A stretch of DNA of 64,000 bases from Prochloron sp. (GCA_965198675.1 OZ240666.1:146806-210805), one strand, 5' to 3'; positions 18,181 to 64,000 are shown, counted from the first letter of the stretch. Notes: generated from the sequence alone by a model not told the origin. A program made the numbers and translations.

Positions 18181-18498
18181 ATGGCAGTAAAACGTTGGAA
18201 CGATGAAATGCTCGATGGGTTAGCTACAAGCGTGACGGAGATGCGGGAGAGTATGACGGAGATGCGGGAGAGTATGACGGAGATGCGAGGCAGCATGACG
18301 GAGATGCGGGAGAGCATTTCGGAGGTAAGGGATAGTGTAGATGGTTTAAGAGTGACCGTTCAAGCATTGTTACAAGTAGCGGCTCAACATGAACGAGAAA
18401 TAGAGTTAACCAAACAGAGACAAGCAGAAAATGATGAGAGGTTTAATGTTTTGCTGGAAGAAGTACGCTATTTGATTCGAGGTCATCAGGGAGATTAG
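18181..18498 (+). CDS. Small coiled-coil protein, tandem paralog 1 (4 x TEMRES heptads)
   Basis: 105 aa with a GAGGAG Shine-Dalgarno sequence before the ATG. It is the first of four head-to-tail units. Confidence 0.5.
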   Translation: MAVKRWNDEMLDGLATSVTEMRESMTEMRESMTEMRGSMTEMRESISEVRDSVDGLRVTVQALLQVAAQHEREIELTKQRQAENDERFNVLLEEVRYLIRGHQGD

Positions 18499-18568
18499 AA
18501 AATCCAGGGTAATAGCAATGGGCACGAGGGTATTTACAAAGTAATCAGAGTAGGATTGAGGAGAGACA

Positions 18569-18823
18569 ATAGCAGTAAAACGTTGGAACGATGAAATGCT
18601 CGATGAGTTAGCTTCAAGCGTGACGGAGATGCGCGAGAGCATTACGGAGGTAAGGGATAGTGTAGATGGTTTAAGAGTGACCGCTCAAGCATTGTTACAA
18701 GTAGCGGCTCAACATGAACGAGAAATAGAGTTAACCAAACAGAGACAAGCAGAAAACGATGAGAGGTTTAATGTTTTGCTGGAAGAAGTACGCTATTTGA
18801 TTCGAGGTCATCAGGGAGATTAG
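18569..18823 (+). pseudogene. Small coiled-coil protein, tandem paralog 2 (start codon ATG to ATA)
   Basis: The unit is homologous to the others, but the position of the ATG reads ATA (18569-18571). The ORF track starts only at the internal Met (18596). Confidence 0.45.
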
Positions 18824-18893
18824 AAAATCCAGGGTAATAGCAATGGGCACGAGGGTATTTACAAAGTAATCAGAGTAGGATTGAGGAGAGACA

Positions 18894-19169
18894 ATGGCAG
18901 TAAAACGTTGGAACGATGAAATGCTCGATGAGTTAGCTTCAAGCGTGACGGAGATGCGCGAGAGCATTACGGAGATGCGGGAGAGCATTACGGAGGTAAG
19001 GGATAGTGTAGATGGTTTAAGAGTGACCGCTCAAGCATTGTTACAAGTAGCGGCTCAACATGAACGAGAAATAGAGTTAACCAAACAGAGACAAGCAGAA
19101 AATGATGAGAGGTTTAATGTTTTGCTGGAAGAAGTACGCTATTTGATTCGAGGTCATCAGGGAGATTAG
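18894..19169 (+). CDS. Small coiled-coil protein, tandem paralog 3 (2 heptads)
   Basis: 91 aa, near-identical to paralogs 2 and 4 except for one extra 21-nt repeat. Confidence 0.5.
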   Translation: MAVKRWNDEMLDELASSVTEMRESITEMRESITEVRDSVDGLRVTAQALLQVAAQHEREIELTKQRQAENDERFNVLLEEVRYLIRGHQGD

Positions 19170-19239
19170 AAAATCCAGGGTAATAGCAATGGGCACGAGG
19201 GTATTTACAAAGTAATCAGAGTAGGATTGAGGAGAGACA

Positions 19240-19494
19240 ATGGCAGTAAAACGTTGGAACGATGAAATGCTCGATGAGTTAGCTTCAAGCGTGACGGAGA
19301 TGCGCGAGAGCATTACGGAGGTAAGGGATAGTGTAGATGGTTTAAGAGTGACCGCTCAAGCATTGTTACAAGTAGCGGCTCAACATGAACGAGAAATAGA
19401 GTTAACCAAACAGAGACAAGCAGAAAACGATGAGAGGTTTAATGTTTTGCTGGAAGAAGTACGCTATTTGATTCAAGGTCATCAGGGAGATTAG
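19240..19494 (+). CDS. Small coiled-coil protein, tandem paralog 4 (1 heptad)
   Basis: 84 aa. The unit spacing to paralog 3 is 346 nt. Confidence 0.5.
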   Translation: MAVKRWNDEMLDELASSVTEMRESITEVRDSVDGLRVTAQALLQVAAQHEREIELTKQRQAENDERFNVLLEEVRYLIQGHQGD

Positions 19495-19575
19495 AAAATC
19501 CCACTCTGAAGTTGCATTATCCTCCTCAAAAGGATAATGTGAAATTATAAAATTTATCACCGTTGAGAAATAACT

Positions 19576-23323: not shown

Positions 23324-24572
23324 ATGTTGATCTACGAGATGAAACTGGAAGGAACTAAAGAACAGTACCCACCCCCCTTGCCCCCCTCCCGGGAGGGGGG
23401 TTGGGGGGTGGGTAGCTATTCGTACTGGGCGTTTTATTCGTAACAGTATCATCAGAGCGTGGATTGACAGAGAAGTGAAGAGTCGCAACTCAGCCTACAA
23501 ATATTGCAAGATTTTGGCAGATAATCCAGAGTTCCCTTGGGCAAAGCAGTTAAACTCGCAAGCAAGACAAGCCCACGCCGAAAGAACATGGGCTGCAATC
23601 GAGCGCTTCTTTTTAAACTGCAAGGCAAAAATTCAAGGAAAAAAGGGGTATCCAAAGTTTAAAAAGTATCAGGTCAGGGCGTCGGTGGAGTACAAAACTT
23701 CCGGTTGGAAACTGTCCGAAGATCGTAAGTATTTGACTTTTTCTGACAAGTTCCAAGCAGGTAAATTTAGACTTTGGGGTAGCCGTGACCTTCACTATTA
23801 TCAACTCAACCAGATTAAACGAGTGCGAGTAGTGAGGAGGCATGATGGCTATTACGCGCAATTTGTAATTAACCACTCCAGGAGGGAAACTAAGGAACTA
23901 TCCAACAAACAATCAGGGCTAGATGTTGGTTTAAACCATTTCTACACAGACTCCCATGGCGATACAGTCGATAATCCAAGGTTTTTAAGAAAAGGTGAAC
24001 GGCGTATTAAAAAGCTACAAAGACGTTTATCTCGAACTAAAAAGGGCAGTAGTAACCGCTCTAAAGCTAGGAATCGCTTAGGTAGAGCGCATCGATCGGT
24101 TTCCCGCAAACGTAACGATTGGGTATGTAAGTTGGCCCAGCGCGTCATACGGTCTAACGACTTAGTAGCGATTGAAAACCTAACAGTGCGTAATATGGTG
24201 AGAAACCACTGTTTAGCTAAATCTATTAACGATGCAGCTTGGTATAAATTCCGAGAATGGCTAGAGTATTTTGGGACCATTTATGGGGTGAAAGTGATTG
24301 CCATTGACCCCAAATATACTTCTCAAAACTGTTCTAATTGTGGGAAAAAGGTGACCAAAACATTGAGCACCAGAACTCACAATTGTCTTCATTGCGGTTA
24401 TATAGCTGATCGGGATGAGAACGCTGCCATCAATATCCTGTCTGCTGCATTGGAACAATTAAAAACTACCCTGGGGCACAGGGAAAGTAACGCCTCTGGA
24501 GAGACTCCCCTCTGCCTAGTAGTGGAAACACCGCTGAGTAAGGGAACTCGCAGAAAGAGGAAATCCTCATAG
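23324..24572 (+). pseudogene. tnpB: TnpB (IS605 OrfB) RNA-guided nuclease, N-terminus frameshifted by a 46-nt palindromic mini-insertion
   Basis: MLIYEMKLEGTKEQY (frame 2) is followed by 46 nt of C/G-run palindrome (23369-23414). The protein resumes as AIRTGRFIRNSIIRAWID... (frame 0). The C-terminal zinc finger and RuvC are present (CSNCGKKV...HNCLHCGYIADRDENAAINIL). Confidence 0.75.
23369..23414. repeat. C/G-run palindromic mini-element (CCCACCCCCC..CCCTCCCGGGAGGGGGG..GGGGGGTGGG)
   Basis: It is a near-perfect palindrome. Related copies lie at 58602-58643, about 59196-59245, about 12636-12665, about 31262-31310 and about 39222-39275. Confidence 0.7.
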
Positions 24573-26961: not shown

Positions 26962-27020
26962 GGACGGTGCGTTGCCATTGCGAAGCAAAGCGTAAGCAAC
27001 CGCCTTTGGCGTCCGCACCC
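26962..27020. repeat. Short copy of the composite GACGGTGCGTTGCCATTGCGAAGC...GGCGTCCGCACC mini-element
   Basis: It shares its ends and core with 57666-57771 and 59966-60091 but has single sub-repeats. It is duplicated at 27926-27984. Confidence 0.6.
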
Positions 27021-27878: not shown

Positions 27879-28248
27879 GATCGCTCTGGTTAGAAACGGA
27901 GCCGTTAATCTCTATATCAAGGTTTGGACGGTGCGTTGCCATTGCGAAGCAAAGCGTAAGCAACCGCCTTTGGCGTCCGCACCCTACGCAGGAGGTCAAC
28001 TTGCGTCGGGTTCATGAATGTGTGTTTGCTATTCTTGCATTGGAGAGTGAACCTGTGGATCCTCGTTTGTAGGGTGGGCATTGCCCACCAAGCAACGCGC
28101 CCTTTATAAAACCCCGACCGGGTTTCAATTACTCCCCTCCTGGGGTTGAAACCCCAGGCTATTCCCTACTCTTCTCATGATTTTTTACCCCAACAGTGCC
28201 CCTACATTTTGCCGATCGTATCAATTCTCTTGTAGGCATCGCCCACCA

Positions 28249-35651: not shown

Positions 35652-36970
35652 ATGACCAAAGAACTGCACAAAGAGAACTTTAATAGGAATCAGATAGCTC
35701 AGTTAGTTAAAATGACGGAGGAGGAATGGAGGGAAACTCTCCGGTCTTTGTGTGACAACGGTGAGTTTGATAAAATGTGGCAGTTAGCTCAAAAAGTACC
35801 TCCTGTCTGGAGTAGGGAGCTATTACAAGAGTTGGGTAAAGTAAAATGGTCTCCCTCCTGGGAAGGGGAAAGAGAAGTTTTTCAGAAGTTGTTGTCTTTA
35901 GCAGAGAATTGTGTTGAGGAAGTACCGCTGGGGGGACTGGTAAGCTGTAAGAAGGTATTGAGAGGACATTCCAATTGGGTCAGCTGTTTAGCTATCAGCC
36001 CGGATGGTAAGATTCTTGCTAGTGGTGGGAGTGGGGACGATACCGTGCGATTGTGGGGATTACCAGATGGTAAGCACTTGTGTACTCTTGAAGGACATTC
36101 CAAATCGGTCTGGAGTTTAGCAATCAGCCCGGATGGTAAGATTCTAGCTAGTGGGAGTAGGGACAAAACCGTGCGATTGTGGGGATTACCAGATGGTAAG
36201 CACTTGCGCACTCTGAAAGGACATTCCAGAAATGTCCGTAGTTTAGCCTTCAGCCCGGATGGTAAGATTCTTGCTAGTGGGAGTGAGGACAAAATCGTGC
36301 GGTTGTGGCGATTACCAGATGGTAAGCACTTGCGCACTAAAGGACATTCCCATTGGGTCTATAGTTTAGCTATCAGCCCCGATGGTAAGATTCTCGCTAG
36401 TGGGTGTGGGGACAAAACCGTGCTGTTGTGGCGATTACCAGATGGCAAGCACTTGCGCACTCTTAAAGGACATTTCGATTTGGTCTATAGTTTAGCTATC
36501 AGCCAGGATGGTAAGATTCTAGCTAGTGGGAGTAAGGACAAAACCGTGCTGTCGGGATTACCAGATGGTAAGCACTTGTGTACTCTTGAAGGACATTCCT
36601 CTACGGTCGAATGTTTAGCTATCAGCCCGGATGGGAAGATTCTAGCTAGTGGGAGTGAAGACGAAACCGTGCGGTTGTGGGGATTACCAGATGGTAAGCA
36701 CTTGTGTACTCTTAAAGGACATTCCGGTTACGTCTATAGTTTAGCCATCAGCCCCGATGGTAAGATTCTCGCTAGTGCGAGTAAGGACAAAACCGTGCGG
36801 TTGTAGACATCAGAGTTACCTCGTGTCACTGCTTTACCCCTAGAGCAACTGACTCCAGAAGATATAAAGTGGGTGGAGGGAGCATTGGAAAATAAAAATA
36901 TTACAGAAGATGAGCGTCATTGGTTAGAATTTACCTTAGAATTAATACGGTGGGAGCAACGATTCGATTC
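35652..36970 (+). pseudogene. WD40-repeat protein, paralog 1 (premature TAG, small in-frame deletions, 3' end truncated)
   Basis: It has the same 110-aa N-terminal domain as 37812..39215. The repeats read GHS..V.SLAISPDGKILASGS.DKTVRLWGLPDGKHL. A TAG at 36804-36806 replaces the Trp of VRLW. Homology continues (TSELPRVTALPLEQLTPEDIKWV...) until it is cut by an inverted Rpn fragment at about 36970. Confidence 0.7.
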
Positions 36971-37811: not shown

Positions 37812-39215
37812 ATGACCAAAGAACTGCACAAAGAGAACTTTAATCGGAATCAGATAGAGCGATTGGTAAAAATGACGGAGGAGGAATGGAGGGAAACTCT
37901 CCTATCTTTGTGTGATAACTGTGAGTTTGATAAAATGTGGCAGTTAGCTCAAAAAGCACCTCCTGTCTGGAGTAGGGAGCTATTACAAGAGTTGGGTCAA
38001 GTAAAATGGTCTCCCTCCTGGGAAGGGGAAAGAGAGGTTTTTCAGAAGTTGCTGTGGTTAGCAGAGAATTGTGTTGAAGAAGTGCCTAAGTTGGGCGGTT
38101 TAGTAAGCTGTCAGAAGGTATTGAAAGGGCATTCCAATAGTGTCTCTAGTTTAGCAATCAGCCCCGATGTTAAGATTTTTGCTACTAGTGGTAGGAATTT
38201 GGACTCCACCGTGCGATTGTGGGGATTACCAGATGGTCAGCATTTGCGCACTCTGAGAGGATATTCCGTTTCCGCCTATAGTTTAGCAATCAGCCCGGAT
38301 GGTAAGATTTTAGCTAGTGGGAATTATAACGATACCGTGCGGTTGTGGCGATTACCAGATGGTCAGCGCTTGCGCACTCTTAAAGGACATTCCGATACGG
38401 TCACTATTTTAGCAATCAGCCCGGATAGTAAGATTCTTGCTAGTGGGGGAGGTGTTGACAAAACCGTGCGGTTGTGGCGATTACCAGATGGTAAGCACTT
38501 GCGCACTCTTAAAGGACATTCCTATGGGGTCAATTTTTTAGCCTTCAGCCCGGATGGTAAGATTCTTGCTAGTGGGGGGGAAAATATCGTGCGATTGTGG
38601 CAATTACCAGATGGTAAGCACTTGTGCACTCTTACAGAACATTCCCATTTGGTCTATAGTTTAGCTATCAGCCCCGATGGTAAGATTCTTGCTAGTGGGA
38701 GTAGGGACAAAACCGTGCGGTTGTGGCGATTACCAGATGGTAAGCACTTGCGCACTCTTAAAGGACATTCCTATGGGGTCAGTAGTTTAGCCTTCAGCCC
38801 GGATGGTAAAATTCTAGCTAGTGGGGGTGGGGACAGAACCGTGCGGTTATGGGGATTACCAGATGGAAAGCACTTGTGTACTCTTAAAGGACATTCCGAT
38901 TCTGTCTGGAGTTTAGCAATCAGCCCCGATGGGAAGATTCTTGTCAGCGGGAGTCGTCAGAACGGAACCCTGCGATTATGGACATCAGAGTTACCTCGTG
39001 TCACTGCTTTACCCCTAGAGCAACTGACTCCAGAAGATATAAAGTGGGTGCAGGGAGCATTAGAAAACAAAAACATTACGGAAGATGAGCGTCATTGGTT
39101 AGAATTCATCTTAGAATTAATACGGTGGGAGCAACGATTCGATATTGAAATTGAGATTGATGATCCAGAATCCAGAGAAAATCCGGTCGAGTTTGATATT
39201 GAAATAGAAGGATAA
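37812..39215 (+). CDS. WD40-repeat protein, paralog 2 (intact)
   Basis: It starts MTKELHKENFNRNQIERLVKMTEEEWRETL. It has about 8 WD40 blades and a C-terminal acidic extension (RFDIEIEIDDPESRENPVEFDIEIEG). Confidence 0.75.
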   Translation: MTKELHKENFNRNQIERLVKMTEEEWRETLLSLCDNCEFDKMWQLAQKAPPVWSRELLQELGQVKWSPSWEGEREVFQKLLWLAENCVEEVPKLGGLVSCQKVLKGHSNSVSSLAISPDVKIFATSGRNLDSTVRLWGLPDGQHLRTLRGYSVSAYSLAISPDGKILASGNYNDTVRLWRLPDGQRLRTLKGHSDTVTILAISPDSKILASGGGVDKTVRLWRLPDGKHLRTLKGHSYGVNFLAFSPDGKILASGGENIVRLWQLPDGKHLCTLTEHSHLVYSLAISPDGKILASGSRDKTVRLWRLPDGKHLRTLKGHSYGVSSLAFSPDGKILASGGGDRTVRLWGLPDGKHLCTLKGHSDSVWSLAISPDGKILVSGSRQNGTLRLWTSELPRVTALPLEQLTPEDIKWVQGALENKNITEDERHWLEFILELIRWEQRFDIEIEIDDPESRENPVEFDIEIEG

Positions 39216-42529: not shown

Positions 42530-43005
42530 AACCGATAATTGCGCTCCCCTACCCAAAGACTAACGGGGACTGCATTTCCTTTACTATCCACCTTCACTTC
42601 TACCACAAATTGCCGTTCTTCCTTTTGTATCTCCCTGATCTGGGCATTAATCTCCTTACGCTTATTTTCTGGCATATAATAGGTTTCCAGCCCATAGTCA
42701 ATCCAGTCAGCACCCCCGGCTGAAGCACGGTTGCTCTCATGCCTCCAGCTTCAGGTAGCTGACCAGCCGTAGGATGCGTTACGCCATAGCTGTCAGCTTT
42801 AAACACTTCTCCAGACGTGTGCTAACGCATCCTACTTAACTGACTACGTTTTCCTTCGTCACGACACCTTCAGGTGCTTTCCAGCCTGTCGCTCTGTCGC
42901 TAATCATTAAACAGCCTTAGTAGGGGTAAAGCAGTGTGGTTGGCCCAACAAGCTTAGAAAACATTGGCAAGGAACACATTACACATCTGTAGACGAGACG
43001 CAACC

Positions 43006-55265: not shown

Positions 55266-56167
55266 GAACCCATTTGAGATCTCTGTTGTGGAGTAAAATA
55301 GGGAAAAAATGCCGTACTCAAGTAGTTTGACAGACGGGGAGTGGAAAATAATAGAACCTCTGTTGCCCAAAAAGAAACAGACAAGACCACCAAAATGGAG
55401 TAAAAGGCAGATTTTAGATGGTATCTTGTACCAATTAAAGAATGGTTGTAATTGGTGTGACTTACCCAAAGACTTGCCCCCCTATTCCACAGTATTTTGG
55501 TACTACAAACAGTGGCGATCGCTTGGGGTAATCGAAGCAATCAGAGATATCTTGCATAGTAGAGTCCGTCAGCAAGTTAAAAAAAAAGGGCAATGGACAA
55601 CCCTAATCATCATTGACTCCCAAGCGGTAAAAAATACCTGTAACGCCAGTGTAAAGTCGAAAGGGTTTTGTTTTTACAAGTCTACCAATGGTCTTAAAAG
55701 ACATCTAGCAGTAGATACTTTGGGCTTTCCTTTTTTTAGTCATTGCACCAAAGCATCGGTATCTGACGATGTGGGTTTGATTGAAATGTTATCGAAAAAC
55801 ATAGATTATTTCAAGTCTAAACCAGTCAACATCCCCAAGATTACCATTTTGCTTGACCATGGATATCACCCAGAAAAACTGACCCAGGAATTACATAAAA
55901 TTTATCCGGCGATTATGACTAAGATTAGATTTAAGGTCTCCCGTAAACCATCAAAAGCTCAAAAGAAAAAGAAAGGAAAAACCGGTTTTGTGCCAGTAAA
56001 AGCGCGGTGGGTGATTGAAAGAACTAATTCGTGGATGGAAAGATGCAAGAGTTTGGTCAAAAACTTTGAAAGGACTCTTGAGCAGGCTAATACCAAGATT
56101 AGTCTATGTTTTGTCCGACTGATGCTTAAAAGGCTAGCCACTACTTAAAAAGATCTCAAATGGGTTC
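55266..56167 (+). mobile_element. IS5-family insertion sequence (902 bp) with 17-bp perfect terminal inverted repeats and 4-bp TATA target duplication
   Basis: Left IR GAACCCATTTGAGATCT (55266-55282), right IR AGATCTCAAATGGGTTC (56151-56167). The element is flanked by TATA at 55262-55265 and 56168-56171. Confidence 0.85.
55309..56148 (+). CDS. IS5-family DDE transposase
   Basis: MPYSSSLTDGEWKIIEPLLPKKK...RQILDGILYQLKNGCNWCDLPKDLPPYSTVFWYYKQW is the DUF4096-type N-terminus. It is followed by the DDE domain (IIIDSQAVKN..., LDHGY..., RWVIERTNSW). Confidence 0.85.
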   Translation: MPYSSSLTDGEWKIIEPLLPKKKQTRPPKWSKRQILDGILYQLKNGCNWCDLPKDLPPYSTVFWYYKQWRSLGVIEAIRDILHSRVRQQVKKKGQWTTLIIIDSQAVKNTCNASVKSKGFCFYKSTNGLKRHLAVDTLGFPFFSHCTKASVSDDVGLIEMLSKNIDYFKSKPVNIPKITILLDHGYHPEKLTQELHKIYPAIMTKIRFKVSRKPSKAQKKKKGKTGFVPVKARWVIERTNSWMERCKSLVKNFERTLEQANTKISLCFVRLMLKRLATT

Positions 56168-56480
56168 TATAGGTATCTGCTGTCTGGGCAAAAGCCGTAT
56201 AATACACAGACAAATCCCGGGTATGACTTTCGCTATGGGCCGGAGTATTCTGATAATGGGCGTCAAAAACGATTTCCGTCTTATAGCCCACAATAGCAGT
56301 GTAATTAATTAAAACTTCTACCAACTCTCCTCTAGCTGAGGAAAGCCCATCATTATCCCTGGTCTTTTTCAGAGACGACCAAGTACCGATGACGTTATAA
56401 CCGTCAACGAGTAGGAGTACTGGGTCTGATTTGGAGGACATTTTTGCTGGTGGGAGGTTGGTTGGATAGTTCTTAAGAAT

Positions 56481-57185
56481 TTACTCATTATTATACTCTG
56501 CGTAATTTGTACGGAGTACAATCTCCAGCAGTCTTTCTCTGAGATGTTGTGGTTCTCCTCGATCTACAACCTTCCCACCGTCCAGCAAAAAAGCACCATC
56601 GCAATAGTTCAACTCTTCTAAGCGGTGGGTAACCCAGAGGGCAGTTAAGCCGCGACTTTTAACTAACCGTTGTACCTGTGCCACTAGCTCTAACTGAGCA
56701 TCGGGATCCAGGAGAGCCGTGGGTTCGTCTAGGAGTAAGGTCTCGCAGCGACGAGCGATGGCTCCCGCGATGGCAATCCGTTGCTTTTGCCCCCCGCTGA
56801 GAGCGTAAATGGGCCTTCTGGCCAAATCCAGAAGATTCACTGCTTCCAGCGAGGAGGCCACTCGCTCTCTTACTTTAGCTAAAGACAGCTTTTCTGCCAC
56901 CAGTCCAAAAGCCACGTCTGCCCCTACTGTGGGCATTACTAGCTGGCGATCGGGATTTTGAAAGACAAAACCTACTGGCTGGGTAATTTCAATTTGCCCT
57001 CCACAGGAGGGCAATAGTCCTGCTAGCAACCGCAGTAATGTAGATTTGCCGCTGCCATTATTCCCCAAGAGCATCCAAAATTCTCCCTTAGGTACTTCCA
57101 GAGAGCAGGATTTTAACAAGGGCTTTTCTGGACTCCAGCTAAAGTCTAAATCTTGCACTCTAATGGCACTGGCTGATGAATTCAT
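56481..57185 (-). CDS. ABC transporter ATP-binding protein (energy-coupling-factor/CbiO-like)
   Basis: Walker A GNNGSGKSTLL, signature LSGGQKQRIAIAGA, Walker B LLLDEPTALLD. Confidence 0.75.
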   Translation of the reverse strand: MNSSASAIRVQDLDFSWSPEKPLLKSCSLEVPKGEFWMLLGNNGSGKSTLLRLLAGLLPSCGGQIEITQPVGFVFQNPDRQLVMPTVGADVAFGLVAEKLSLAKVRERVASSLEAVNLLDLARRPIYALSGGQKQRIAIAGAIARRCETLLLDEPTALLDPDAQLELVAQVQRLVKSRGLTALWVTHRLEELNYCDGAFLLDGGKVVDRGEPQHLRERLLEIVLRTNYAEYNNE

Positions 57186-57418
57186 TCCTTTTCAGCTGCC
57201 GTAAAGAAACCCGGGGCCTTCCCAGAGGCTGTGGTGCTAGATTTCTGGGACACTATTACAGCGCAGACATGTTCTGACAGGACAGCTATTTGTTTATCCG
57301 GCTGCTTTTCGCAGGTCAATTCCAGCATTTGCTTGGTACGGGATCCCATTGCTTTCACAATTTCCCGGTATAGCTTAAGGGCATCCTCTTTTTCTTTCCG
57401 TTGCACCGAGAGGGTCAT
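57182..57418 (-). CDS. Hypothetical small protein, co-transcribed with the ABC ATPase
   Basis: MTLSVQRKEKEDALKLYREIVKAM... It overlaps the downstream gene by 4 nt. The TTG start at 57439 in the ORF track abuts the intron 3' end, so I prefer the ATG at 57418. Confidence 0.4.
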   Translation of the reverse strand: MTLSVQRKEKEDALKLYREIVKAMGSRTKQMLELTCEKQPDKQIAVLSEHVCAVIVSQKSSTTASGKAPGFFTAAEKE

Positions 57419-57512
57419 CGGTGTGTTCTTCACAGTCAAGTCGGGTAAGGTTCAGGAATCACTTCCCTCCCCTCCCCTAAGAACCGGACGTGACAGTTTC
57501 CTATCATCCGGC

Positions 57513-59462
57513 TCAAGCCTCACCCCGACAGTTGCCTGTCGGCCCTACTTGCTTGGATTTCTTGGAGTGTACCTGTTTATGACACGGGACGCTAACGCAG
57601 TTGCTTACGCAATTGTGTATGTGCATAAGGTTGTCAGTGTCGTCTGACCCCCCTTTCGCTACAGGCCGACACCGCGTTGGCCATTGCGAAGCTTTGCGAA
57701 GCAACCGCCTTTGGCGTCCCGCCTTTGGCGTCCCGCCTTTGGCGTCCCGCCCAAGGCGGGAGCGGTGTCGGTGTGGTGGGTTTCGATTTCTGAACCGCAG
57801 ATAATTGCTACGCAATTGTCTTTTCTGCCAGTATTCCTTCAATTCTGGATCGTCTGGGGAGTTAGTCCCCGTTACTTTGACATGTCTTATAAGAGGTTCC
57901 GATGTTATTTCGTATAGGTCGTGAGTTATCCCTCGGCCTTTACGGTCAGTTCCCTCATAGAAGAATTGCCATTCCTTTTTGCGACCTCCCTTTCGGGTGA
58001 TGATTCGGAAATATTTGTTCTTGACCCACTTTTTACTTTTGTTAGGGTGCCGTCTCTTTGCCCAACGCCAAAGGTACCACCATAGTCGGTAGCTAATGTG
58101 ACTAAAGGTTTCTTTGCTGCATACCCCTTTGTAGTAATTAGCAAAACCTCTGAGAAGCGGTTCTAGTTTTCGGGTAACTTGCTCTGGGGTTCTTGTCTTC
58201 ATGCTGTCGATGGTTTCACCGAGCTTCTTGCAGAATTCCACTACCTTTGACTTTTGAGGCTTGATGAGAAGTTTGTCCCTGGGGATTCCGTCTTCACCTT
58301 TAACCTTATACTGCCTCAGGTTAAACCCTAGGAAATCGAACCCGTCACTGATGTGGACTATCCTTGTCTTCTCCTCACTGAGATTGAGACCTATTTCTGA
58401 CAACCATTGATTTATCTGGATTTTCAATGCCTCCAAGGATTCCTTATCCTTTGCAGTGACGACAAAGTCGTCTGCATACCTGATGACGCCTACCTTTGGG
58501 TTGCATTTCTTGATGAATTTCTCTAATCCGTGGAGTCCGACATTGGCCAACAGCGGACTAATTACGCCACCCTGGGTCGTACCTGTTTTGGTCGGGTTGT
58601 ACCCACCCCTACCCCCTCCCAGGAGGGGGACTTTGGGGGTGGGTTCGACGAATCCAGCTTTTAACCATCCTCTGATTGAAGGGATGTACCCCATTCTGGT
58701 CAGGATAGATTCATGATCAATATTGTCAAAGAAGCCTTCAATATCAGCGTCCAGAACCCACTTATCGTATTTGCGCATCTGCCCGGTTTTGGTTTTGTGG
58801 TCGCCTCTTAGCCTTATGAAGCATTGTGCTATGGCGTCGTGGCAACTCCGTCCCGGTCTGAAACCATAGGAGTTGGCCTCAAATTCAGCTTCCCATTGGG
58901 GTTCCAGTGCATTTTTAACTATTGCCTGAGCGACTCTATCCCTCACGGGACGCCAAGGGCGGGACGCCAAGGGCGGGACGCCAAGGGCGGTTGCTTCGCA
59001 AAGCTTCGCAAAGCTTCGCAAAGGGATTCCGAGGGGCCGACAGGCAACTGTCGGCTTGCCGTTTGCCTTTGGAATATATATCCGTCTGGCGGGTGCTGCT
59101 GTTGGCATTTTCCATAGAGAGGCAAGTTTCACACGCTGTTCTGGGGTATTTATGACCTCCTTATCTATCCCCGATGTTTGCTTTCCGGTATAACCCCCCC
59201 CCTTAATCCCGGGGGGGAGATGACAAGGGGGGTAAGGGGGGATTTTCCGCTGTGTGATTTGTCTGATGCTCAGGAGTAGATTCGAGCGGCACCTTTTCAT
59301 TAGTTTCTGCAATCGCAGTACTTGCTTATGCAGTCCAAGCTTTTGAGCACGAAAGATTCGATTTCTTAGATTCCTGACGATTTTCCTGGTTTGACGCCAT
59401 TTGACATCGCCCCATTCAGATAATTGTCCCTCCGGTCCATTTTCCAGAATCGCTTCTGTCAT
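57513..59462 (-). CDS. Group II intron reverse transcriptase/maturase with HNH-like tail
   Basis: RT motifs are present (RRIYIPKANGK, GFRPGRSCHDA, VLDADIEGFFDNIDH, TTQGGVISPLLANV, IRYADDFVVTA). There is a maturase X region and a C-terminal GGSDDTDNLMHIH..CHKQVH. The ORF is open over 649 aa despite four repeat insertions. Confidence 0.8.
   Translation of the reverse strand: MTEAILENGPEGQLSEWGDVKWRQTRKIVRNLRNRIFRAQKLGLHKQVLRLQKLMKRCRSNLLLSIRQITQRKIPPYPPCHLPPGIKGGGYTGKQTSGIDKEVINTPEQRVKLASLWKMPTAAPARRIYIPKANGKPTVACRPLGIPLRSFAKLCEATALGVPPLASRPWRPVRDRVAQAIVKNALEPQWEAEFEANSYGFRPGRSCHDAIAQCFIRLRGDHKTKTGQMRKYDKWVLDADIEGFFDNIDHESILTRMGYIPSIRGWLKAGFVEPTPKVPLLGGGRGGYNPTKTGTTQGGVISPLLANVGLHGLEKFIKKCNPKVGVIRYADDFVVTAKDKESLEALKIQINQWLSEIGLNLSEEKTRIVHISDGFDFLGFNLRQYKVKGEDGIPRDKLLIKPQKSKVVEFCKKLGETIDSMKTRTPEQVTRKLEPLLRGFANYYKGVCSKETFSHISYRLWWYLWRWAKRRHPNKSKKWVKNKYFRIITRKGGRKKEWQFFYEGTDRKGRGITHDLYEITSEPLIRHVKVTGTNSPDDPELKEYWQKRQLRSNYLRFRNRNPPHRHRSRLGRDAKGGTPKAGRQRRLLRKASQWPTRCRPVAKGGSDDTDNLMHIHNCVSNCVSVPCHKQVHSKKSKQVGPTGNCRGEA
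57666..57771. repeat. Composite mini-element: CCGACACCGC...GCGGTGTCGG inverted ends enclosing GCGAAGCTTTGC-type and 14-nt GCCTTTGGCGTCCC tandem sub-repeats
   Basis: 106 bp with three 14-nt units. It lies inside the RT ORF. Confidence 0.8.
58602..58643. repeat. C/G-run palindromic mini-element, 42-nt in-frame copy inside the RT ORF
   Basis: CCCACCCCTACCCCCTCCCAGGAGGGGGACTTTGGGGGTGGG. It is homologous to 23369-23414. Confidence 0.7.
58947..59024. repeat. (GGGACGCCAAGGGC)x3 plus (TTCGCAAAGC)x3 array, inverted orientation, inside the RT ORF
   Basis: Read directly. It is followed by the palindrome GCCGACAGGCAACTGTCGGC (59035-59054), also present at about 57524-57543. Confidence 0.8.
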
Positions 59463-59965
59463 CTAACTTTTCCTTTGGTTGGGTTTCTATTTCGTCGTCT
59501 CGTTCGTATGAGACCCAAGTGAAGTCTGCTATTCCTTTCGGTCAAGGGCAAATTTTGAACCCTTATCCCCTTCATTACAAAGAGGCGTTCGCTTTCTCAC
59601 TCATCCTTTACCCTCCAGAGGGTTCTGCCGCCGTTACCTTTGGCTTACTGAGAGTATCGACCTGACTCTCAGACTCTGTAGGGCTTATCCTGTTGTATCG
59701 CTTAGTTTTCTTTTAGCTGGTTAGGATGGTTCCTTTCCCCCGGGAGAGCTTCATTTCCACATCTAGTTGAAAAGACAGCATCTAGATTCGTCTCCTTGCC
59801 TTTTTGGCTACGGCGTATCAGAGATAATTTCGCCGTTCGTTCCTTACGAGGTTTAAACGGAAGGTTCGGTTTTGTTCGGTATTTACTACCTGGATTCCTC
59901 CGATTTCCTTTGAGTTTCGAGAAGCTTCTCCCTTTTCTCTCGGTATTCGGGCGGGTTATCCAACC

Positions 59966-60091
59966 CCGACACCGCGTTGGCCATTGCGAAGCTTTGCGTA
60001 AGCTTTGCGTAAGCTTTGCGCAAGCTTTGCGTAAGCAACCGCCCTTGGCATCCCGCCCTTGGCGTCCCGCCCTTGGCGTCCGCGGTGTCGG
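59966..60091. repeat. Composite mini-element, long copy (4 x 12-nt AAGCTTTGCGTA units, 3 x 14-nt units) in the intron ribozyme region
   Basis: It has the same inverted ends as 57666-57771 but different sub-repeat copy numbers. Confidence 0.8.
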
Positions 60092-60519
60092 CCCTTTTAC
60101 TTCGCTTTCGCTCATCCTTCCAACTATTTCCCTCTTGCTCCTGGCACTTAATCTCTAGTGTTTCGGTTACTTTCGGGGCCTGCATTCCAGCTGTTTCGTT
60201 ACCTACTTGGCTGTGACCGGACTCATGGAGTCTTTTCCGTGAGGGTTAGGGGTGGAAATCCCTAAGAGGCTCGGTGCCTCATACTAAGCGACCAGTTCAG
60301 GCCGCACGTCAATGGTAAACATCAAGACATTATTGCAATAGTACAATCTCTATTATAGCCCGTGTTTGTTGGTGGTGGGTGGTTCCCATGACTCATGACC
60401 CACTACCCATTACCCAATTTTTGAACCACAGATGATTGCGAAGCAAAGCGCAAGCAAAGCTTCGCAATCATCTGCGTGTATCTGCGGTTACAATTTTTAT
60501 ATTTTCTTAAGATTTGGGG

Positions 60520-63665: not shown

Positions 63666-64000
63666 TTAATTGATTTCGTCCGGGTGTACTCCCATTTCTA
63701 GTAAACGCTGGGCTAACTTTTCAGCGCGTTGGCGTTCAGTTTCGGCCTGTTGGCGTTCGGTTTCAGCCCGTTGGCGTTCGGTTTCAGCCCGTTGGTGTTC
63801 GGTTTCAGCCCGTTGGCGTTCGGTTTCGGCCTGTTGTTCCAGGGTTTTGATTTTGGGACGCCAAGGGCGGGACGCCAAGGGCGGGACGCCAAGGGCGGGA
63901 CGCCAAGGGCGGTTGCTTACGCAAAGCTTGCGCTTTGCTTCGCAATTGTTCTTCTTTAATTAATTCCTCCACCAACGGCGGATCCAGTAGTTCTTTGACC
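63666..64000 (-). CDS. Partial gene (5' end outside window) ending in an (AETERQR)x5 heptad array; interrupted by a 14-nt-repeat mini-element
   Basis: The C-terminus is ...KIKTLEQQAETERQRAETEHQRAETERQRAETERQQAETERQRAEKLAQRLLEMGVHPDEIN*. Upstream sequence (VKELLDPPLVEELIKEEQ...) is separated from it by (GGGACGCCAAGGGC)x4 at 63855-63910. Confidence 0.4.

Follow-up and report, generated by a model that had tools for sequence, protein, structure and literature searches.

A repeat-riddled group II intron in a Prochloron-like cyanobacterium: signs of selection on the RT-X part of its maturase and decay of its endonuclease

The reverse transcriptase/maturase frame of a group II intron in 64 000 nucleotides of Prochloron sp. 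DNA (GCA_965198675.1 OZ240666.1:146806-210805; the whole of this 64-kb stretch is called the window) is riddled with very small repeats and is still open over 649 codons. The initial annotation counted four unrelated small elements translated in frame, with a fifth in the ribozyme, and saw in them either selection on the ORF or elements that are built to be translatable. The question raised by this locus is whether the frame is open owing to a need for the protein, owing to a property of the invaders or as the passing state of a dying copy. The intron, its host gene and its protein are arranged as follows, F1 being the commonest of the repeat families discussed below.

57440..60307, minus strand: group II intron (5' GTGCG, domains V/VI, GAC 3'), placed by RF00029 and by colinearity with paralogues
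57440..57516, minus strand: domains V and VI of the ribozyme (Rfam RF00029)
60308..60322, minus strand: 5' exon of the host gene, ATG TTT ACC ATT GAC = MFTID, which joins the 3' exon
57182..57439, minus strand: 3' exon of the host gene, UPF0367/PRK13683 family, from a profile match of the joined exons
59966..60091, minus strand: F1 composite within domain I of the ribozyme, lacking in L002, L084 and L085 at the same point
57513..59462, minus strand: intron-encoded protein (IEP), 649 aa, with RT0-7, X and D readable and En destroyed (Pfam)

Both intron ends proposed at the outset hold up. The 5' terminus (GTGCG at 60307-60303) fits 5' GUGYG, and domain V/VI, which is nearly identical to that of paralogous introns, matches RF00029 from the first to the last of its 77 positions with 62 bits (gathering score 40; 57516..57440). 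The intron aligns end to end at the DNA level with three paralogous introns (L002, L084 and L085), and the orthologous intron in the sister strain (L001) differs by 23 mismatches in 2866 nt. The Rfam D1-D4 class models gave no match to the intron, even with relaxed thresholds. A loop, GTCGAT (59661-59656), that could pair with exon ATTGAC was considered as EBS1 and was not accepted because paralogues whose exons differ conserve it too.

Joined in silico, the exons encode a 90-aa protein that matches NCBIfam NF010236 over positions 1-86 of 88 (114 bits; cut-off 90). A Pfam search of the host gene in the window did not detect UPF0367, although the NCBIfam search did and the same gene in L001 is called PF26132 UPF0367. 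The intron splits this conserved small gene after codon 5, so a full host product would need splicing, and we infer from the sequence that the intron is still spliced today. An 'empty' orthologue of the intron was not found, and a metagenome scan with a lineage-specific 20-mer of the intron gave no match. Exact-protein searches with the PsbD of the window, with a 78-aa UPF0367 call and with P0002 likewise matched no record.

The element annotated in the 5' part of the ribozyme is genuine and is missing from the paralogues. It is a composite with an 11-bp terminal inverted repeat (CCGACACCGCG), three 14-nt units and about 4.9 units of 11 nt; the L001 version is shorter by 39 nt. When the ribozyme is folded, the element forms a self-contained hairpin, and of the 194 base pairs outside it 188 are the same with and without the insert.

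The 649-aa frame (59462..57513) is equally secure as the ORF of a group II maturase. Pfam identifies RVT_N (7.5e-17), RVT_1 (1.1e-38) and GIIM (7.3e-21), and YADD is invariant across the aligned relatives. The best structural matches are the group II maturases 8FLI and 6ME0, and the closest solved relative is the TeI4 maturase to which these entries belong (phmmer E = 1e-87, Foldseek E = 2e-29, 36-38% identity). In the AF2 model the core has a pLDDT of 80-97, with low values only at the inserts and in the C-terminal third; the RT-X residues with a pLDDT below 50 are only 73-98, 135-169 and 278-284. Low values are expected at segments without homologues in the alignment and are therefore weak evidence that these segments are loops. 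Uninterrupted relatives are about 549-600 aa long and lack the inserted segments in protein and DNA alignments and in the alignment with chain C of 6ME0. The peptides quoted in the initial annotation are all present in the ORF, and their absence from these relatives identifies the segments as insertions rather than native coding sequence. One of the peptides of the protein, LRSFAKLCEATALGVPPLASRPWRP, is an example of a target for metaproteomic detection.

Four insertions lie in the RT-X region.

59192..59245, minus strand: element a, a C-run/G-run hairpin in RT0 (ITQ[..]TGK), net +54 nt, from the gap in paralogues
59037..59054: element b, an 18-nt hairpin (CCGACAGTTGCCTGTCGG) before RPLGIP, net +12 nt (K to PTVAC), from alignment
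58947..59024, plus strand: element c, an F1 array between GIP and VRDRV (RT1), net +72 nt, from alignment
58599..58644: element d, a nested G/C palindrome before RT4, net +30 nt, from alignment and folding

Element a corresponds to a 54-column gap in all paralogues, is a gap against 6ME0 as well and lies in the low-confidence residues 73-98 of the model (pLDDT <50); no further copies were found in 262 kb of related DNA. Elements b and c had been taken for a single element (58947-59054) and are two insertions, a hairpin and an F1 array, on either side of native RPLGIP. The array consists of three 14-nt units, the F1 core and three 10-nt units. At the same RT1 site L001, L084 (P0006) and P0010 have a single F1 core only (+24 nt, peptide LRSNRPWRP), and L002 and L085 are empty. 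Counted by event, the net lengths in RT-X are +54, +12, +24, +48 and +30, and all five are in frame. In-frame insertion thus stands for the RT region. The remaining member of the original four, in the HNH region, has a different history.

57793..57815, minus strand: F1 end fragment TTGCGTAGCAATTATCTGCGGTT, net -83 nt, from alignment
57772..57790, minus strand: remnant of native E-I-E-T-H-H, now read in frame +1, from frame comparison
57666..57771, minus strand: composite F1 element replacing 5 nt, net +101 nt, frame restored, from alignment
57586..57613, plus strand: F1b variant GGGACGCTAACGCAGTTGCTTACGCAAT in the C-terminal half of HNH, net +24 nt (CVSNCVSV), from alignment
57525..57542: second copy of the 18-nt hairpin, net +13 nt, from alignment

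The end fragment occupies the place of some 108 nt that natively encoded part of HNH, the CxxC included, and the EIETHH codons behind it are in frame 1 of the window ORF versus frame 0 in L002. The composite, whose inverted repeat is the same as that of the ribozyme copy, then brings the frame back: -83 nt and +101 nt give a net +18, and the two frameshifts cancel. In L001 the composite is 16 nt different in net length, and the ORF is broken at this element and stops at 579 aa. PF01844 (HNH) has no Pfam match in the window IEP, whereas the relatives have HNH. The earlier view of it as an in-frame insert within a functioning domain is wrong. Judged by its codons the endonuclease is dead, because the CxxC knuckle is lost and the catalytic ETHH codons are out of frame; group II introns as a family need not have an En domain (PMC4424553). 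The second hairpin copy puts the dispensable tail at the C-terminus out of frame and leads to a premature stop (compare the tails of P0004, P0005 and P0008), and the motif CGCAATTATCTGCGG is found again beside F1 copies in LD05. By event, the net lengths in En and the tail are -83, +101, +24 and +13, of which only one is in frame.

The list of five elements was thus incomplete: the F1b variant, the F1 end fragment and the second hairpin copy had been missed, and the total is no fewer than nine insertions or replacements. Nor are the elements unrelated, since three of the five first listed (57666-57771, 58947-59024 and 59966-60091) have the F1 core and the 14-nt and 10/11-nt sub-repeats in common and, together with two fragments, make up one family. 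Its core is 27 nt long (GGACGCCAAGGGCGGTTGCTTCGCAAT) and consists of two tandem mini-hairpins of 4 bp each rather than an inverted pair. The bare core lacks a terminal inverted repeat; the 11-bp inverted repeat is found only in two composite copies. Eight F1-type sites lie in the window. Among the 81 matches listed, at least 26 F1 copies lie in 25 Paraprochloron loci and the rest are isolated chance hits in unrelated taxa; the bare 27-nt motif accounts for 15 of the 24 complete Paraprochloron copies among these matches. A metagenome scan with a 23-nt F1 core gave no match.

The window and L001 differ chiefly within the tandem arrays, as would be seen if the array lengths were errors of long-read metagenome assembly. 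An artefact of this kind is very improbable, however: an independent assembly has the same elements at the same sites together with 23 point differences and a difference in IS presence, and the core is also present in L084, P0010 and two published Paraprochloron genomes.

At three independent filled-versus-empty sites (RT1 in three paralogous introns, a different site in P0008 and one in a Uma2 gene) F1 adds exactly eight codons. The footprint at each is one base replaced, with no target duplication, and no target consensus other than A|CC can be read from the flanks. Where 25 nt take the place of a single base the gain is exactly eight codons, and we infer the mode of movement, including this one-base-for-25 exchange, from the sequences of these sites. 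All six frames of the core are free of stops, as are those of the F1 arrays, composite elements and hairpins. F1 is therefore frame-neutral by construction, with +24 nt net and no stops, and it lies in open read-through in at least six genes, including ARC6, TnpB, Uma2 and intron ORFs, in varying frames and orientations; it would be translated there as part of the host ORF.

This neutrality is lost when the element grows. Growth by 14- or 10-nt units breaks the frame in the sister-strain HNH copy and in a gene at 63666-63975; balanced growth is seen in ORFs at RT1 (two 14-nt and two 10-nt units) and in Uma2 P0122 (one of each). Nested self-insertion of F1 into AACC at its own centre was proposed for the equal numbers of 10-mers and 14-mers and was rejected because the junction base is T and not A, each array has a single GGTT centre and P0122 has 5-nt units. 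Growth by tandem duplication would fit better.

Could the in-frame pattern then be a property of the invaders alone? Elements that evolved to be translatable or tolerated, like the Rickettsia palindromic elements (RPEs), would leave such a pattern and say nothing about selection on the ORF, and in-frame MITE fusions are documented (PMC10969869). The +24 nt footprint, the six-frame openness and the read-through of F1 in many genes agree with this. The argument holds for F1 only, and a 27-mer of its composition is open in six frames by chance in 18% of cases. The 18-nt hairpin, of which a third copy lies at L001 6962-6979, adds 12 nt in RT but 13 in the tail. The G/C palindrome adds 30 nt in the RT region, and its relative in tnpB (23366-23414; 49 nt here, given as 46 nt before) breaks the frame as first reported, parting an N-terminal segment (frame 2) from the OrfB_IS605/TNB segment (frame 0). 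An IS605-type tnpB and a HEARO RNA are also present in the window. From these sequences the hairpin and the palindrome are not frame-neutral by construction, and sub-unit growth of F1 breaks genes. The idea of elements built to be translatable thus applies to F1 and fails for the hairpin, the palindrome and the grown arrays; as an account of the whole pattern it is improbable.

Selection on the ORF can be assessed more directly. In-frame events number five of five in RT-X versus one of four in En and the tail (Fisher P = 0.048), and the chance of five in-frame events is (1/3)^5 = 0.004; the nine indel events are a small sample, their division is partly a matter of judgement, and the case was chosen for its open ORF, which biases ascertainment. 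In native RT-X codons the window and the sister strain differ by four synonymous and two non-synonymous substitutions (pN/pS 0.14, P = 0.023), again a small sample of six. Where 13 relatives show no variation in an alignment column, the window protein differs at seven such columns outside the HNH region (the others range from 1 to 14) and at 17 more within it. The sequence data suggest selection for maturase function in the RT-X part; the claim of selection on the ORF survives for that part and does not extend to En and the tail.

These figures also bear on the alternative that the intron is a plain pseudogene, a dead or dispensable copy whose ORF is open by virtue of G+C-rich, stop-poor repeats, the neutrality of F1 and a short time. 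Stop-free repeats and a +24 nt step that comes by mechanism would indeed need no selection. The native parts of the ORF are another matter: their openness is not trivial, because the other two frames over the same 1.95 kb hold 35 and 38 stops. The destroyed HNH region, which the ORF passes through only by two cancelling frameshifts, and the truncated ORF of the sister strain would be at home in a pseudogene; less so the non-F1 inserts of RT-X (+54, +12, +30) and the F1 growth there (+48), which are all in frame while the same families shift frames elsewhere. The pN/pS of 0.14 likewise speaks against a dead copy, and constraint at the invariant non-HNH columns resembles that of intact paralogues. 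We regard a plain pseudogene as unlikely, though deserving of serious consideration.

Two further points in its favour concern RT activity and the paralogues. The substitution P296T falls within GTPQGG of RT4, a motif that is invariant otherwise, another P to T change is seen in ISPLLAN of the sister strain, and the IEP scores 278.5 bits with TIGR04416, under the curated cut-off of 300; for these reasons some decay of RT activity is likely. The genome of a relative has about 50 RT genes (PMC9298193), and splicing in trans by a paralogous maturase has been shown in Thermosynechococcus elongatus (PMC2882425). A paralogue could do the same for the intron described here, and the window ORF would then not be needed.

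Our preferred reading, to which we assign a probability of roughly 0.6, is that a group II intron long resident in a host gene of a relative of 'Candidatus Paraprochloron terpiosi' has had its repeats filtered by function, with the RT-X/maturase part and the ribozyme kept and En decayed. The RT-X part of group II maturases binds and folds its own intron, and the endonuclease domain is thought to be necessary for mobility only. Several families of very small repeats in the genome would have hit the intron at least nine times, the survivors being those that passed the functional filter. In RT-X only frame-keeping, stop-free, loop-located insertions would have persisted, and in the ribozyme the sole insert would have been tolerable as a self-contained hairpin. 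The endonuclease would meanwhile have been partly deleted, frameshifted and left to drift, with frameshifts that happen to cancel here but not in the sister strain. Part of the in-frame pattern would have arisen without selection, as the commonest element, F1, adds eight codons and no stops, and only its later growth by 14-nt and 10-nt sub-units would shift frames. Against this reading, the inserts of 18 and 24 aa in RT0 and RT1 may be harmful, and the signs of RT decay described above also count.

There are precedents for such an intron. When the degenerate IEP of a bacterial intron in a real gene still has its frame open, it is taken as a retained maturase, as for O.i.I2 in radC of Oceanobacillus iheyensis (PMC4424553). 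As with O.i.I2 and with MatK in trnK, the intron lies in a real gene, the mobility function is lost, and the part containing X/thumb has no stops, the open frame being read as retained splicing (PMC4424553). Unlike these two, the RT motifs including YADD are kept here and En is lost, the damage has come through mini-repeat insertions and deletion rather than point-mutation drift, and the sister strain is already truncated at the C-terminus. The group IIB intron TeI4 of T. elongatus is comparable in that its genome, likewise cyanobacterial, is rich in intron copies and has twintrons, ORF-less derivatives and IS-interrupted ORFs; in contrast, the TeI4 proteins lack the extra loops, and colonisation of TeI4 introns by mini-repeats is not described in that work (PMC2882425).

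F1 itself has several partial counterparts. Compared with REP/REPIN sequences its core has tandem mini-hairpins in place of paired inverted REPs, and the bare core lacks the terminal inverted repeats and target-site duplication of a classical MITE. It comes closest to the repeats SDR1-8, of 21-27 nt, that Elhai et al. reportedly described in Nostoc punctiforme and relatives (2008, Genome Res 18:1484; cited in PMC5861425 and PMC3116915). SDRs are reported to be, like F1, tiny (25-27 nt), dispersed and cyanobacterial, to be filled in or missing at homologous sites that otherwise run on unbroken, to lie frequently at a hairpin tip or inside another repeat, and to have no obvious transposase. F1 differs from them in sequence, in its host (a Prochloron-like sponge symbiont) and in its two 4-bp mini-hairpins with 14-nt and 10/11-nt units that amplify separately. 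According to PMC5861425, SDR-like repeats were not known outside the Nostocaceae. Like RPEs and in-frame MITEs, F1 lies inside protein genes and is read as extra peptide loops that the host protein apparently tolerates (PMC10969869); RPEs are, however, palindromes of about 100-150 bp against a 27-nt core, and the host 'gene' here is itself a mobile-element protein.

A bolder and rather doubtful proposal is that F1 may be an undescribed ultra-small mobile element and the first SDR-like repeat outside the Nostocaceae. By swapping one base for 25 nt beside CC without target duplication, always adding eight codons and being stop-free in six frames, it would behave as a coding-neutral parasite that can settle in essential genes and even in another mobile element's maturase, with its 14- and 10-nt hairpin units acting as frame toggles. 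Mobilisation could use HUH/IS605-type single-strand hairpin recognition or intron RTs.

The whole case fits known patterns of intron decay and of frame-preserving mini-repeats. Degenerate IEPs are rare in bacteria according to a 2015 review, and the locus offers a natural experiment on which parts of an IEP remain necessary to the cell after its intron has become trapped in a real gene. In RT-X and the ribozyme only frame-preserving, loop- or hairpin-like inserts would be accepted, and the endonuclease would be left to decay. The maturase loops with 4-24 extra residues (in RT0, before and after RPLGIP, and before RT4) are candidate insertion-tolerant sites for engineering. The locus also reveals a compact repeat family in sponge-symbiont cyanobacteria, and with its fixed 24-nt footprint and six-frame openness F1 may serve as a tractable model for the spread of tiny repeats in coding DNA.

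The intron can be aligned over its whole length with three paralogous introns of related genomes (loci L002, L084 and L085), and its domain V/VI match is full-length (57516..57440; 62 bits with Rfam). It is placed after codon 5 of a small, conserved host gene, the joined product of which matches NCBIfam NF010236 (profile positions 1-86 of 88; 114 bits, cut-off 90).

60307..57440, minus strand, group II intron, 5' GTGCG, Rfam RF00029 domain V/VI at the 3' end
59462..57513, minus strand, 649-aa ORF in intron domain IV, Pfam RVT_N, RVT_1 and GIIM
60322-60308 (ATGTTTACCATTGAC) and 57439..57182, minus strand, host-gene exons, joined in silico to a 90-aa protein

Among solved structures the ORF is nearest to 6ME0/8FLI, the TeI4 maturase of Thermosynechococcus (phmmer 1e-87, Foldseek 2e-29). 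Pfam finds no HNH domain in the 649 residues, while relatives of ~549-600 aa all have PF01844. L001, an ENA contig of 4.7 Mb from a sister strain, serves best for comparison: its orthologous locus has psbD, the intron-bearing UPF0367 gene and an ABC ATPase gene, and the two introns differ by 23 mismatches in 2866 aligned bases. An IS-like insertion of ~900 nt (~55270-56172) is present in the window and not at the orthologous position in L001. Both introns start with the canonical GUGCG and the paralogous introns (L002 ~1307, L084 and L085) with GCGCGAC; in the exons upstream of these paralogues, nothing obviously matches the conserved GGTCGAT loop. Another paralogous intron forms a twintron (L087 ~1784-2470; also L039 ~6300): a small group II intron without an ORF splits its ORF (P0088) at a point between RT0 and RT1. 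This small intron, also found in LD05, carries close to its 5' end the core of F1, a small-repeat family.

Inserts were delimited against uninterrupted paralogues using protein and DNA alignments.

Inserts in the window intron
rz, 59966-60091, hairpin element of 126 nt within domain I of the ribozyme
a, 59192-59245, C-run/G-run hairpin in RT0, net +54
b, 59037-59054, 18-nt hairpin CCGACAGTTGCCTGTCGG, net +12
c, 58947-59024, array of repeats lying between GIP and VRDRV, net +72
d, 58599-58644, nested G/C palindrome upstream of RT4, net +30
e0, 57793-57815, repeat end fragment in place of ~108 nt of HNH coding sequence, net -83
e, 57666-57771, composite element in place of 5 nt, net +101
f, 57586-57613, F1b variant, net +24
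g, 57525-57542, the 18-nt hairpin again, net +13

The initial annotation had described four unrelated, in-frame, stop-free inserts in the ORF. The segments that it quoted are real insertions, since the uninterrupted paralogues are without them, but the count of four is too low. Nor are the elements unrelated: rz, c and e have in common a 14-nt unit GGGACGCCAAGGGC and a 10/11-nt unit GCTTCGCAAA around a single core, rz and e are further alike in their 33 terminal bases, which are identical, and in an 11-bp inverted repeat, and F1 also takes in f and e0 as variants or fragments.

The HNH-like tail is not a working domain that took an in-frame insert: a change of -83 is followed by one of +101, and the native codons between the two are frame-shifted. 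Between the flanking conserved codons there are 150 nt in the window and 132 in L002, a difference made up of -83 upstream and +101 downstream of the remaining GAAATCGAAACCCACCACA; this is native E-I-E-T-H-H coding sequence, now in frame +1 of the ORF. The CxxC knuckle was lost by deletion, and the window deviates at 17 HNH columns that are invariant among relatives. The L001 copy of element e has a net difference of 16 nt from that of the window, so that there the ORF (P0001) meets a stop at 579 aa. Hairpin g frame-shifts the optional C-terminal tail, whose reading frame in three relatives (P0004, P0005 and P0008) continues across domains V and VI.

Selection on the ORF, as had been proposed, is supported for the reverse transcriptase and maturase part (RT-X) but not for the endonuclease part (En) and tail. 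All five RT-X events are in frame (+54, +12, a +24 core, +48 growth of that core, and +30) compared with one out of the four in En/tail (one-sided Fisher test, P = 0.048; (1/3)^5 = 0.004), and between the window and L001 native RT-X codons carry four synonymous and two non-synonymous differences (pN/pS 0.14, P = 0.023); these numbers are small and the case was picked because the ORF is open. The +48 growth consists of 2 x 14 + 2 x 10 nt, any single step of which would break the frame; P0122, a Uma2 paralogue, is likewise balanced (+14 +10). Read in its other two frames, the ORF contains 35 and 38 stops. Outside HNH, the window deviates at seven columns invariant in 13 relatives (range for the others 1-14). 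The AF2 model has pLDDT 80-97 in the RT-X core, low values being confined to the inserts and the scrambled C-terminus; as low confidence is expected where the alignment has no homologues, this argues only weakly for loops. In the ribozyme, rz folds by itself via its inverted repeat, and 188 of 194 MFE pairs outside it are unchanged. Against full function we count P296T within GTPQGG (L001 has another P->T, in ISPLLAN) and a TIGR04416 score of 278.5, under the cut-off of 300. A further point against it is possible action in trans by paralogous maturases (PMC2882425).

A second proposal, that the elements are built to be translatable, holds for F1 and fails for the 18-nt hairpin (+12 in RT versus +13 in the tail) and for the family of palindrome d. 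The F1 core is stop-free in all six frames, for which the chance in a 27-mer is 18% at F1-core composition and 5% at window composition; the 80-nt and 106-nt arrays are open in six frames too. Its net gain was exactly 24 nt in three of three independent filled-versus-empty comparisons. On the simplest reading of these sequences, a 25-mer TTGCGAAGCAACCGCCCTTGGCGTC would swap for one base adjoining CC without target duplication, the ancestral base at each site being assumed. The RT1 site ATCCCT-A-CCGTG is filled in the window, L001, L084 and P0010 and empty in L002 and L085, and P0008 has F1 at a different site and frame, giving IAQQPPLAS. In a Uma2 nuclease gene F1 converts YYAIFE|PREG to YYAIFD-CEATALGV-PREG; aligned paralogues (P0122, P0121 and the L036 ORF) have three states at one site, namely empty, the 8-aa CEATALGV and a 16-aa insert CVALRSNRPWRPAFGV consisting of the F1 core, one 14-mer and 10 nt. 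Long ORFs with F1 read through in several frames and both orientations include ARC6/Ftn2 and a TnpB.

Amplification of F1 sub-units does shift frames, as in the L001 HNH copy and in a heptad-repeat (AETERQR) gene (63666-63975, minus strand; 21-nt repeats at 63719-63836). In the latter, the N-terminal piece MVEELIKEEQLRS... and the C-terminal piece lie in different frames, separated by an F1 element (63855-63946) grown to 4 x 14 nt and ~3 x 10/11 nt. Orthologues of the gene in LD05 and SP5CPC1 (L054 and L034) have just the 27-nt core, which is in frame there (..EEQLRSNRPWRPKIKTLEQ..). The initial annotation was right that a tnpB copy of the palindrome breaks the frame: an IS605-type tnpB (23324-24572, plus strand) is interrupted at 23366-23414 by a relative of d, a G/C palindrome of 49 nt, with the HTH-like start MLIYEMKLEGTKEQ in frame 2 and the AIRTGRFIRN... 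OrfB_IS605 and TNB part in frame 0. A HEARO RNA of the IS605-family omega-RNA type (RF02033, 108 bits; 42706-42982, plus strand) also shows that TnpB-type elements are present in the window. Two identical F1-variant copies GCCATTGCGAAGCAAAGCGTAAGCAACCGCCTTTGGCGTCCGC lie ~960 nt apart (26974-27016 and 27938-27980) with flanks GGTGCG/CGCACC, in a segment that looks duplicated. Between psbD and the intron-bearing gene, intergenic 60430-60490 has F1-related fragments ATTGCGAAGCTTTGCTTGCGCTTTGCTTCGCAAT between CCGCAGAT and ATCTGTGG; the ATCTGCGG motif also stands on either side of many F1 copies in intergenic DNA of LD05. Other long coding tandem repeats are 325-nt units containing 21-nt sub-repeats (18292-19501) and, in two arrays (35963-36804 and 38147-38954), units of 126 nt whose periodicity is WD40-like.

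Apart from single chance matches, the characteristic repeat junction was confined, among the matches listed, to LD05 and SP5CPC1 of 'Candidatus Paraprochloron terpiosi'; the bare 27-nt motif GGACGCCAAGGGCGGTTGCTTCGCAAT is the commonest F1 form in Paraprochloron (15 of 24 complete copies among the matches listed). In kind, F1 is closest to the small dispersed repeats, 21-27 nt long, of Nostoc, reportedly described by Elhai in 2008. Such repeats are not known outside Nostocaceae according to PMC5861425. LD05 and SP5CPC1 are cyanobacterial symbionts of the sponge Terpios, and the LD05 paper gives 50 RT genes and makes no mention of small repeats or introns (PMC9298193). Some small repeats, the RPEs, are known to fuse in frame with host genes, as here (PMC10969869).

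Taken together, the initial observation is partly confirmed and its interpretation partly supported. In RT-X and the ribozyme a filter would pass frame-preserving inserts that are loop-like or hairpin-like, the En domain would have been given up, and F1 would be superimposed as a repeat family that is frame-neutral through its own mechanics. The best reading is that of an immobilised intron, putatively kept for splicing its host gene; the same reasoning on a retained splicing role has been applied to O.i.I2 in radC, a rare bacterial case, and to MatK (PMC4424553).
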